Shown one piece after another: positions 1 to 55,485 of a stretch of DNA of 64,000 nt. The DNA is from Octopus sinensis. Lineage: Eukaryota. Position numbers and translations under genes: made by a program. The stretch is taken from the NCBI RefSeq assembly GCF_006345805.1, contig NC_043008.1, positions 53,568,001 to 53,632,000 on the forward strand. Direction: 5' to 3'. Position 1 is the first letter of the stretch. Every line of letters starts with the position of its first letter. The notes beneath the pieces are model-generated. The model had not been told where the DNA came from, did not search any database, and saw only the letters and a list, made by a program, of their open reading frames with translations.

Positions 1-210
<210 letters not shown>

Positions 211-4631: not shown

Positions 4632-5240
4632 GGCTACTATGGCAGGGCAGATGGAAGGAAACCTTTATGTATCCAAAGAAGAATTTAGTGGGCAAATGAG
4701 ATGGCAGAAAGAGCCATAGGCTTTAAGGAAACCGCCATATTCTTGGGCGAATCAAGATTTGCCCAGTTTTCTGACAGTGGCTGTGTGTGGGTCTTCAACG
4801 CCTTAAGCTAACCATCTGCCACTAACCATGAAATGAGGCGGGTGGTTCAGTGTTGATGTAGGGAGCTATGTGGAGTGCTGGTAATTCAGACCTTGTGGAA
4901 TATATTGGCAACATAGACTCAGAAAAATACATCCCTTTCCTTCGGAAAGGACTTTCAAATTTCTCCAGGGGTCAGGACAATTGGCTGCCTGGAGCCAGAA
5001 ACAGAAGAGTTTTTTGGCGAAGGTAGTTGGCTGTTATGAAATCCTTTAAACACATTCGAGTTGTTCTTGTCATAGTAGCGAAAAACCATGGATATCTATG
5101 TCAAATGTAGATTTGTTCAAATATTTGGGCGCAGCCTTGACAGAAATTCCTCATGCAATTTCTGAATTCACTAATATAGATTCTAAAGGGGTTTAATAAT
5201 AAAAACTGCGCAAGACAAGTCGGTAAAATACTAAATTATG
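4632..5240 (+). pseudogene. Decayed Tc1-family DDE transposase
   Basis: Translates GYYGRADGRKPL...R*WA...IFLGESRFAQFSDSGCVWV and, after a frameshift, GGSVLM*GAMWSAG...GNIDSEKY, matching the Tc1 RKP / FSDESRF / GGGSVMVWG / MNSEKY motifs. 3' extent approximate. Confidence 0.85.
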
Positions 5241-5732: not shown

Positions 5733-7084
5733 ATTATGATTGGATAATTGGTGTGGTTAGTACGTTTGTATATATTTTTTCTAGTAATCTATTTATTTTC
5801 CCGATTTCTTTACCCTAAGCTTAAATTATTTACTGGACTTCTATTTCACCTAATTTTCCGTTCATATTTAAGGTCTTATTTCTTTTGTCTTCAGTTCCTG
5901 TTTTTACTGTTTTTACCTGTTTTTTTTTGCGTTTTTTCCCCTATGTATTTCATAATTTAAACGGCTTTTATCATCCCTTTCAACATCCTTACATTTTCAT
6001 GTACCCCATTATTTTTCCATAATCTTTTACAGCTACATTTTTCTAACCATTTTTCCGAATCATTTTTCCTATTATCTTTTTCAACATTTTCCTTAGAATG
6101 TCATTTTTATCTCCACCGATATTCTTAATTTCTTTTCCCTTTTTCTCCATCTTTTTCCCATTTTGTCTCCATTCTTATTCTATACATTTTATTCTACTTT
6201 ATTCCATTCGAACTTGTGATCATTCTTCTAAACCAATATCTCAGTTGGGTTTTCTATTCGTTTTAATTACTATGTTTTTCAGTGACCTCCAATACTTTAT
6301 TCACCCCACCCTGCATCTTCATTCGCCCCTAAAATGTAATATATTATTTTTATATTTTGTTTACTCCTTTGCCATTTTGTCCATCCCTGTCGTTTTAACT
6401 CTCATGCTATTTTTCATTCATTCCAGCTAAGAGTTCATTATCTCCTTTTCCAAACTCTATGCCTCCAACACCTGTTCCCTCTTTCTCAATTACTTTCTTT
6501 CCCTTTTCATTTCTCTCTCAACCCTTTTCTCTTTTCTACTTTTCTTTTTTATTTTTTATCCTTTTCTTTCTTTCACACTCCTTTCTCTTTTTTCCCCTCT
6601 TTTCCTTTTCCTGATTTCTTCCTTTTTCTCGGCTTTAATTTTCTTTAGATTTTTTTTTCTTCTACTCTCCTTCCATCACAACTTCTCCCTACCTCTTCCT
6701 TCCTTCCCGCTTGCTTTCCTCCTATTTCCTGTCCTTTATCATACTTTCTCCCCACCATCACACCATATGGCTAGAAAACTCTATATGTAAATGTGGAAAC
6801 CTCATCAATTTTCCAGTCACACCTTGCTTGAACATCCCCTGCAATTACAGGTGAAACTCAAAACAAAAAAGATACTGACTTCATCAAGAAGTCAAAAATT
6901 TTGCAATATTTTTGTAACTTAGTTGCTTCATTCGTCAACTACAACAAAAGCAGCCTACCATTTAAACTAGACGTCACCATGTGAAACTGTCTCAAGCCAC
7001 CATTCTGTTAGTTCTTTGTTCCCTCACTGATACCAGTCCTGGTCCTTCGAGACTAAGGACTCATTCACAGAAGCTTCCGCCTTA

Positions 7085-14834: not shown

Positions 14835-15265
14835 AAGAGAGACATGCATATCTGGGTAGAGGACGTCACCAATGGTGCAAATAACATGAAATACGCAAAC
14901 GAGGGAAAAATGAGGGGAATACGTAAACAACGAGAAGGAAAATGGAAAACAGGACAATTAATCACTGGGAAAGGACCCTTCATCAGTTGTCGGCTGTGTA
15001 TCAATCCTCATTTCGAGCATTCAACGACAATATCAGTCTTCAAAGACAGTTGCGCCCATAAATTCTAAAATAAAGTTTAAGATTTATAGAAGGTCATAGT
15101 TGGGAACAAAACAAATGACAGCGGAGACATACAAGGAAACCGAACGAAAACAAACATGGAGGGTCGTTGGACCAGAACGAGAAGAAATTAGTGAAGGCTG
15201 GGAGAAACATTTTTTTTTTTTGTTTTGAAAAGGGAAATGGTAGAAATGAGAAAGAAAAACACACA
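14835..15265 (-). mobile_element. Fragment of a non-coding element carrying a permuted hammerhead
   Basis: Architecture and 3' end (GTGACGTCCTCTACCCAGATAT) resemble 54544-55452 (GTGGTGTCCTGTACTCACGTAT). Boundaries approximate. Confidence 0.55.
14975..15051 (-). ncRNA. Candidate non-circularly permuted hammerhead ribozyme
   Basis: Minus strand gacuga-UA-uugucg-uugaau-gcuc-GAAA-ugag...cagc-cgacaa-CUGAUGA-a-gggu; stem I 6 bp perfect, stem II GGGU/GCUC, stem III with one mismatch. Confidence 0.65.
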
Positions 15266-52631: not shown

Positions 52632-52910
52632 GACTGCGTGTGTACCGTTGGCGATTTTATTTCCTCCGTCTTCCCTTCTCTGGATCTTTCCTTCTCCTAT
52701 GTTTCTGACGAAGAGTTCCGCTCGAAACGTTGAACCCTCCTTCATCCCTTCCTTCCTGAGCGTCCAATAATACTATATTTGTTCCACGTCCTCGCGTTGT
52801 TGTGTTTTCTCTTTGTGTTTTCATGTTTGGATTAACTTTATATAGATATATGTATATATTTATTTCCGTAAACCTGCCTTCGTTTTTGTCTATTCTCATA
52901 AAGCTTCCCG
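52632..52910 (+). mobile_element. Penelope-related terminal repeat with intact minimal hammerhead (52701-52735)
   Basis: GUUU-CUGACGA-A-GAGUUCCGCUC-GAAA-CG-UU-GAAC. Confidence 0.82.
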
Positions 52911-54543: not shown

Positions 54544-55452
54544 GCATATATTTTATTTATTACACTATTGTATGACTGAGCGCCCTCGCGTCGATTCGAT
54601 TCGATTCGTTCGTTTCGTTTCGTTCTTCTTCTCCAAGTACTGTTTTTATATATAATTATGACGCGAAACTCTTACCTCTTTGCTTTACCTTCCCTTCTTT
54701 CCCTATCTCTCTCTCACTCCTCCTCATCTCTCTCAGCCGCTTGTCTTCCTCTATCTCTTTCTCTCCCTCTCACTCCTCCTCATCTCTCTCACAGCCAGCC
54801 AACTCTTCCTTTTACACGCGGCCTTCTAACTGTAAACACACGGTTTTCCTTGCGCTCTCCAGAATCTTCCTCGTCTAGGCCAAAAAAGGCCCTTTTCGTT
54901 TGTTTTTCTTGTTTTGTTTTTATTTCTCGTATTATAATTTTTTGTAATTGTATTTTTATTTTGTATTTTATTTTGTATTTTTATTTGTATCGTTTTTACG
55001 TCCTGTTTTTGTTACATTTTTTCTTTCTTTGTTTTTACCCCTCTGCGAAGTAATTTTATTTAATTTCTTCGCAGGAAGGGCTAGTTCGGCGAGTCGTGTT
55101 CTGTCCTACCTTCGAAACACGCTGGAGTTGAACTAGGGACAGCTGATGAAGGGGATTTTTTCCTTATGTAGTTTGTCTTGTACTCTGTTTTTCGTTGTAA
55201 AAAAATGGTCTGTTCGATGCTTGTTTTTCCGTTTTCGTTTCTCGTTGAGTTCTACGTCTATTTGTGGTGTCCTGTACTCACGTATATATATTTATATATG
55301 CATGTATATATACATGTAGATGTAGGTACGTACATATAGGTATGTTTCTATGCATATATTTTATTTATTACACTATTGTATGACTGAGCGCCCTCGCGTC
55401 GATTCGATTCGATTCGTTCGTTTCGTTTCGTTCTTCTTCTCCAAGTACTGTT
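54544..55452 (+). mobile_element. Non-coding element with 101-bp terminal direct repeat (808-bp period), carrying a permuted hammerhead
   Basis: 54544-54644 matches 55352-55452; pyrimidine-rich interior; same layout as 2387-3520. Confidence 0.75.
55081..55154 (+). ncRNA. Candidate non-circularly permuted hammerhead ribozyme
   Basis: Stem III CGTGT(55095-99)/ACACG(55117-21), triplet GUU, stem I CTGTCC(55101-06)/GGACAG(55137-42), CTGATGA(55143-49), A, stem II GGGG(55151-54)/CTTC(55110-13), GAAA(55114-17); extra helix CTAGTTC(55081-87)/GAACTAG(55130-36). Confidence 0.72.
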
Positions 55453-55485
55453 ATATATATGTATATATATATGTATGTATATATA

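Follow-up and report, generated by a model that had tools for sequence, protein, structure and literature searches.

A hammerhead motif in S-G-C order within an octopus repeat

We analysed a stretch of 64,000 nucleotides (nt) from the genome of Octopus sinensis (NCBI RefSeq GCF_006345805.1, NC_043008.1:53,568,001-53,632,000, forward strand; hereafter the window), in which a hammerhead ribozyme motif lies within a repeat that we call family A. No credible open reading frame (ORF) was found in the repeat unit. The motif consists of three blocks, S, G and C, preceded by a hairpin, a short leader and one strand of an extra helix, and a second copy of it, assigned to subfamily B, lies on the opposite strand of the window (Table 1).

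The stretch 55095-55154 is a non-circularly permuted hammerhead motif with the blocks in S-G-C (SGC) order, which confirms an observation of the preliminary description of this DNA. A descriptor covering all six block permutations ranked it first in the window, with stems 7/4/4. The core (CUGANGA, GAAA, UH and the G10.1-C11.1 pair) is complete and contains one inserted A; the predicted cut is 3′ of H17 (U55100) in block S. The preliminary description had named a full core, three stems, an upstream hairpin and an extra helix, and a coordinate check located all of them at the positions given. The strand order that it called Z-Y-X is, according to the descriptor and to PMC10085705, the non-circular permutation known as type SGC, and the linker of 2-3 nt that it placed between stems I and II measures 3 nt. 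Its doubt about the novelty of the class was justified, as the topology had already been published as type SGC (PMC10085705). New relative to that description are the host repeat, the leader helix competing with stem II, the accumulation of 5′ ends at the predicted cut and the weakness of stem II.

Block-wise dinucleotide shuffling of the window gave no SGC match with stems 5/4/4 in 200 shuffles, while a match in any block order was obtained in 2 of the 200 and one of equal score in 1. A comparison of the window with Rfam returned a single match, to tRNA, and no hammerhead. Two other registers of stem II, one without insertion and one with the insertion before GAAA, failed in subfamily B, and the register with the extra A was therefore kept.

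Table 1 Coordinates of the SGC motif, its surrounding elements, the host repeat and the second copy in the window
Feature	Position	Strand	Remarks
Host repeat, family A	54544..55460	+	unit of ~810 nt plus a ~110-nt repeat of its start; runs into (TA)n
Upstream hairpin	55043..55074	+	arms 55043-55050 / 55067-55074; base may overlap leader
Leader GAAGG	55075..55079	+	can pair with CCUUC 55109-55113; expected to compete with stem II
Extra helix, 5′ strand	55081..55090	+	7 bp with 55081-55087; 10 bp counting G-U pairs
Block S	55095..55106	+	stem III strand 55095-55098, U16.1 = 55099, H17 = U55100, stem I strand 55101-55106
Linker between stem I and stem II	55107..55109	+	3 nt
Block G	55110..55121	+	stem II strand CUUC 55110-55113, GAAA 55114-55117, stem III partner 55118-55121
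Extra helix, 3′ strand	55127..55136	+	7-bp part 55130-55136; continuous with stem I
Block C	55137..55154	+	stem I partner 55137-55142, CUGAUGA 55143-55149, extra A 55150, GGGG 55151-55154
Second SGC copy, subfamily B	14975..15036	-	differs in stems I, II and III, extra helix and leader; one mismatch in stem III

Covariation and conservation of the core

Alignment A1 was built from 157 distinct pattern-selected copies. Removal of 51 copies with <45 nt of upstream homology left 106; grouping by identical G-C linker reduced these to 74, and the window copy was added before alignment with MAFFT (75 in total). Seventy loci had been chosen in (near) list order from each end of the lists and 40 to give a variety of linkers, without knowledge of their upstream sequence. 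In the named structure, the paired share of the A1 cells was 86.7%, compared with 73.6% after shuffling and 42-53% in slid registers, and the number of double-changed cells (270) was reached in 0 of 500 shuffles. Paired cells accounted for 93.3% of stem III and 87.7% of stem I; in the extra helix the value was 75.3%, with double changes in 7/7 pairs. U16.1 and H17 lay outside the search patterns: U16.1 was present in 74 of the 75 sequences, and H17 was C in 38, A in 23, U in 14 and G in none. The linker between stems I and II measured about 2-6 nt across A1.

A tree calculated from the downstream flank only (74 rows) joined all subfamilies and distributed the compensated variants of stems I and III over different branches; its subfamily B part was poorly resolved. 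Stems I and III and the extra helix covary in compensated ways on several branches, and the expectation of the preliminary description for these three helices is borne out by the 75-copy alignment and the flank-only tree. We consider it very probable that the fold is a selected hammerhead fold.

Copy number and subfamilies of the host repeat

The positions 55352-55460 match 54544-54653, so that the start of the family A unit is repeated at its end. Copies of the repeat have variable 5′ starts and common 3′ ends, and tandem arrays and inverted pieces occur among them; the tandem period in loci L011/L012 is 737 nt, and same-strand pairs of copies are spaced 737-879 nt apart. We searched the genome (2.7 Gb, microsatellite-rich) with two disjoint exact patterns spanning blocks G and C only, and with the reversed patterns as controls. 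The patterns gave 3508 and 4298 matches (7,806 in total), and the controls 3 and 5 (8 in total). Twenty arbitrary 10-kb regions (200 kb) contained 0 copies, where ~0.6 would be expected from 7,806 copies per 2.7 Gb. When the subfamily B copy was compared with the genome, 40 of 2274 first-look candidates were scored. Contigs from four sequencing runs also cover the motif, although such contigs say nothing on ends, strand or expression.

The stem test (stem I at least 4, stem III at least 3) was passed by 85 of the 113 repeat copies retaining block S (90 of all 157). In scans of viral and metagenome contigs, where the figures concern the 240 matches listed and so prove no absence, it was passed weakly by two, and none of the listed matches resembled the host repeat. 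We also considered a viroid-like rod, which we rejected: a circular fold of the unit paired 46% of the bases of the plus strand and 42% of the minus strand. Among the copies, one subfamily (L263, L295, L310) has two U between CUGAUGA and stem II in place of the single A. In a compact subfamily (L151, L165, L212), the G-C linker is 5 nt shorter and the extra helix is altered yet paired.

5′ ends of copies at the predicted cut

To count 5′ ends, we set aside eight loci as internal deletions. In 34 of 157 copies the sequence starts 3-16 nt before G12, which places the end at the predicted cut or slightly 3′ of it. The next 24 nt contained 7 ends and the next 200 nt 69 ends, which corresponds to a ~7-fold excess (Poisson p 6e-18). 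As a control, we used an unrelated anchor 150 nt downstream and took its first 58 matches listed, some of which are the same copies. In this set, 13 of the 58 ends, read from printed junctions, fell in the 21 nt around G12, and 3 of the 58 adjoined the anchor itself. Since few ends adjoin the distant anchor and 13/58 lie around G12, the peak is not an anchor artefact. Four loci (L125, L156, L234 and L014) are fold-back inversions whose junction coincides with the predicted cut or lies close to it.

The pile-up of 5′ ends suggests that copies of the repeat were cleaved in the past in vivo. Cleavage at the level of the family appears likely.

Features shared with Penelope-like elements

Of the family A 3′ junctions, 22/28 run into TA repeats and are clustered at two positions, and 20 of the 34 peak 5′ junctions lie within microsatellites. 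5′ truncation, partial tandems and inverted 5′ copies are all present among the repeat copies. All of these, together with the microsatellite targets, are characteristic of Penelope-like elements (PMC8557442), whose hammerheads also have an additional base between positions 9 and 10.1 (PMC4209133).

We scanned 25 GIY-YIG loci of this genome, out of 5029 first-look candidates, and compared six in detail. The sampled autonomous elements with reverse transcriptase (RT) and GIY-YIG likewise end in (TA)n. At two of these loci, a same-strand SGC copy lies past the element's own 3′ end. In L147 (G000:C18:30841119-30844382, minus strand) an SGC copy is joined directly to the 3′ end of the GIY-YIG element, without TA between; in L137, a (TA)n stretch lies between them. 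An autonomous parent bearing the SGC motif was not found among the 25 loci scanned. Two autonomous RT and GIY-YIG elements that end in (TA)n have, close to the 3′ end, a minimal type I hammerhead whose core is U3-A8: L281, which has a 781-aa frame (hammerhead at 5935-5975, plus strand), and L283 (minus strand, reverse-complement position 5226).

The repeat is probably mobilised by Penelope-type machinery. We infer a Penelope-like partner element for it, which was not found among the loci scanned.

Two further observations were made in the window. A different repeat at 52640-52840 (plus strand, core at 52705; 1504 first-look candidates) contains a type I minimal hammerhead with a palindromic stem III and an extra A after CUGACGA. 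At positions 1-64 (minus strand), a tRNA match of 34.2 bits, clipped by the window edge, lies beside a TA array and may be the head of a tRNA-derived short interspersed nuclear element.

A leader complementary to stem II

The upstream hairpin is kept across subfamilies, and 5 of its 8 pairs show changes on both sides (35 sequences). It is able to cover the first two bases of the leader, which in turn can pair with the stem II strand of block G (GAAGG-CCUUC in family A and GAGCA-UGCUC in subfamily B). This pairing is present in 93.6% of cells, and 3 of its 5 columns are compensated, chiefly via the single split between subfamily B and the rest. Two other pairings were tried and rejected. Pairing of the leader with pyrimidines 3′ of block C was unsupported (78.4% paired and 77.0% in shuffles). 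A purine hairpin of block C with 3′ pyrimidines gave 88.5% and 88.9%, respectively, with no double change, and its 5′ side is fixed by the search pattern, hence uninformative.

On the modelled pairings, a strand-exchange switch at the leader may gate the motif, a proposal that we hold tentatively.

Comparison with known hammerheads and retroelements

The S-G-C order was named type SGC by Eckert et al. (2023, PMC10085705), who showed cleavage in assays and described 583 SGC sequences from soil RNA; they found none in genomes of known organisms. PMC13725137 only cites this work, and we found no report of an SGC hammerhead in a eukaryotic genome in the literature searched, most subscription journals being outside its coverage. 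The octopus motif shares with type SGC (HRIMA-1 and the SGC variant; Eckert, Friedrich, Weinberg and Weinberg 2023, PMC10085705) the block order, the full core, crossed stems I and II and a linker of about 3 nt, which is the typical length in the published sequences. It differs in being genomic and high-copy, whereas the published sequences come from soil RNA, and in its inserted A. The published search patterns demand CUGAUGAG or CUGAUGAUG; one of the two also has an inserted base after CUGAUGA, but this is U. Since both exclude the inserted A, they would miss the CUGAUGA-A-G motif. The octopus motif further appears to lack the C-block flank helix, which is required for cleavage in SGC-3 (PMC10085705), and it possesses an extra helix on the 5′ side, a leader predicted to compete with stem II, and a stem II rich in wobble pairs. 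Because the C-block flank helix is unsupported, we regard the motif as a variant of the SGC topology outside the published alignments.

Animal non-long-terminal-repeat retrozymes (Cervera and de la Pena 2020, PMC7229834; Li et al. 2026, 10.64898/2026.07.22.740005) resemble the octopus repeat in being protein-less, low in GC, dispersed as well as tandem, with one hammerhead per unit and a link to Penelope. However, their hammerheads are of type I and their units measure 150-450 nt, whereas the octopus repeat has an SGC motif and units of 737-879 nt. Since the defining type I hammerhead fails, the octopus repeat is not a type I retrozyme. With Penelope-like elements (PMC4209133, PMC8557442, PMC11167929), it shares 5′ truncation, partial tandems, inverted 5′ copies, (TA)n targets, a few fixed 3′ ends, the additional base between positions 9 and 10.1 and the G10.1-C11.1 pair, but it has no RT/GIY-YIG ORF, and its stem III is not a palindromic dimer stem. 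Among the matches listed, it had no sequence in common with the sampled autonomous loci, whose own hammerhead, inspected in L281 and L283, is of type I with a U3-A8 core. The motif is predicted to work like a type SGC hammerhead in a retrozyme-like repeat.

Proposed mechanism and alternative explanations

The explanation that we prefer, and consider fairly probable on the sequence evidence, is a covarying SGC hammerhead in a high-copy, protein-less repeat that cuts the repeat RNA 3′ of U55100 to yield a Penelope-type template. Stem III and the extra helix would form a long hairpin whose loop contains the stem I and stem II strands, and block C would pair with both loop strands in a double pseudoknot, with the extra helix stacked onto the far end of stem I. 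In the off state, the 5′ leader would take the stem II strand; in the on state, the upstream hairpin or a protein would release it. The SGC motif would then cut the RNA 3′ of U55100, and a Penelope-like RT/GIY-YIG protein acting in trans would use the cut RNA as a template and copy it into (TA)n sites. A more far-reaching scenario, which we regard as doubtful, is that SGC evolved independently in an animal retroelement lineage from a Penelope-type minimal hammerhead, together with a cleavage-blocking switch of hairpin, leader and stem II that is released by the RT protein or by folding order; the 5′ ends would then be a fossil record of the cut during retrotransposition.

Several results weigh against the preferred explanation. 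In the window copy, stem II is weak (G-C, G-U, G-U, G-C; duplex energy 0.0 kcal/mol) and both of its strands favour other partners in RNAfold; across copies its mean energy is -2.0 kcal/mol, and it shows one double-changed column in A1, where it is partly fixed by the search patterns. The leader pairing excludes stem II and exceeds it in strength in 67 of 73 copies. A C-block flank helix of the published SGC type was unsupported, with 38 of 73 copies beating their own shuffles and -6.6 kcal/mol for the flank segment with the 3′ side compared with -6.6 kcal/mol after shuffling; the segment before stem I pairs instead with the 5′ side in the extra helix (63/73 beat shuffles). The double changes in A1 are mostly transitions, and on 2 of 5 whole-structure measures the shuffles were not beaten (double-change pairs, 67/500; pair types, 321/500). 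The 5′ ends occupy a span of ~13 nt 3′ of the cut; their mode is 5-8 nt upstream of G12 and off the scissile bond, and 3 of the 13 ends in the anchor control lie inside or 3′ of GAAA. Among the matches listed, the repeat had no homology to the six autonomous loci beyond TA repeats. Finally, the hammerhead of an anole Penelope-like element needed protein in order to cleave, and insertion in vitro could take place without this hammerhead; the same study saw no RNA ends at the hammerhead site (PMC11167929).

Because the 5′ ends of the peak are scattered, with their mode 5-8 nt before G12, stalling of RT at the leader helix stays a rival: the fold would be real and selected without useful cutting, would bind a protein or stop RT, and would exist mainly in the leader-helix state. 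The fully Watson-Crick leader helix with its strength advantage over stem II, an end peak located immediately 5′ of GAAA, at the point where RT would run into this helix, and the poor in vitro cleavage of Penelope-like hammerheads (PMC4209133, PMC11167929) agree with it. However, U16.1 and a non-G H17 are retained though they were not selected for, the stronger upstream hairpin is without a peak (the 40-59 bin contains 3 ends), and the peak stops at the scissile bond, with 34 ends in 14 nt followed by 7 in 24 nt. We consider this rival unlikely.

Less probable still is that the blocks act between two units or molecules, as in the dimeric type I motifs of animal retrozymes, so that the active order is not intra-unit SGC. 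Animal type I motifs do act as dimers (PMC4209133) and same-strand pairs of copies do occur 737-879 nt apart, but here every partner is inside one unit, stem III is a non-palindromic helix of 5 bp lengthened by the extra helix within ~60 nt, the linker of 2-6 nt agrees with the monomeric published SGC (PMC10085705), and the listed copies are mostly single. That the complementarities are chance or DNA-level fold-back remnants in one amplified repeat is hardly credible: inversions are common among the copies (L125, L156, L234) and related copies inflate the covariation counts, but no shuffle gave SGC 5/4/4, several compensated stems are branch-specific, inversion does not make a crossed geometry, and two of 240 listed outside matches pass the stem test.

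Significance

With the SGC motif of this repeat, non-circularly permuted hammerheads, previously described from anonymous soil RNA, now extend to a eukaryotic genome, where they are present in thousands of copies, and the subfamilies of the motif form a natural series for studies of structure and kinetics. The finding implies that genomic ribozymes are undercounted by type I-III descriptors. The competing leader is a natural candidate for an off-switch. The repeat also bears on the role of hammerhead cleavage in Penelope-type retrotransposition: one in vitro study found such cleavage dispensable (PMC11167929), yet the insertion ends in the octopus genome point to the predicted site.
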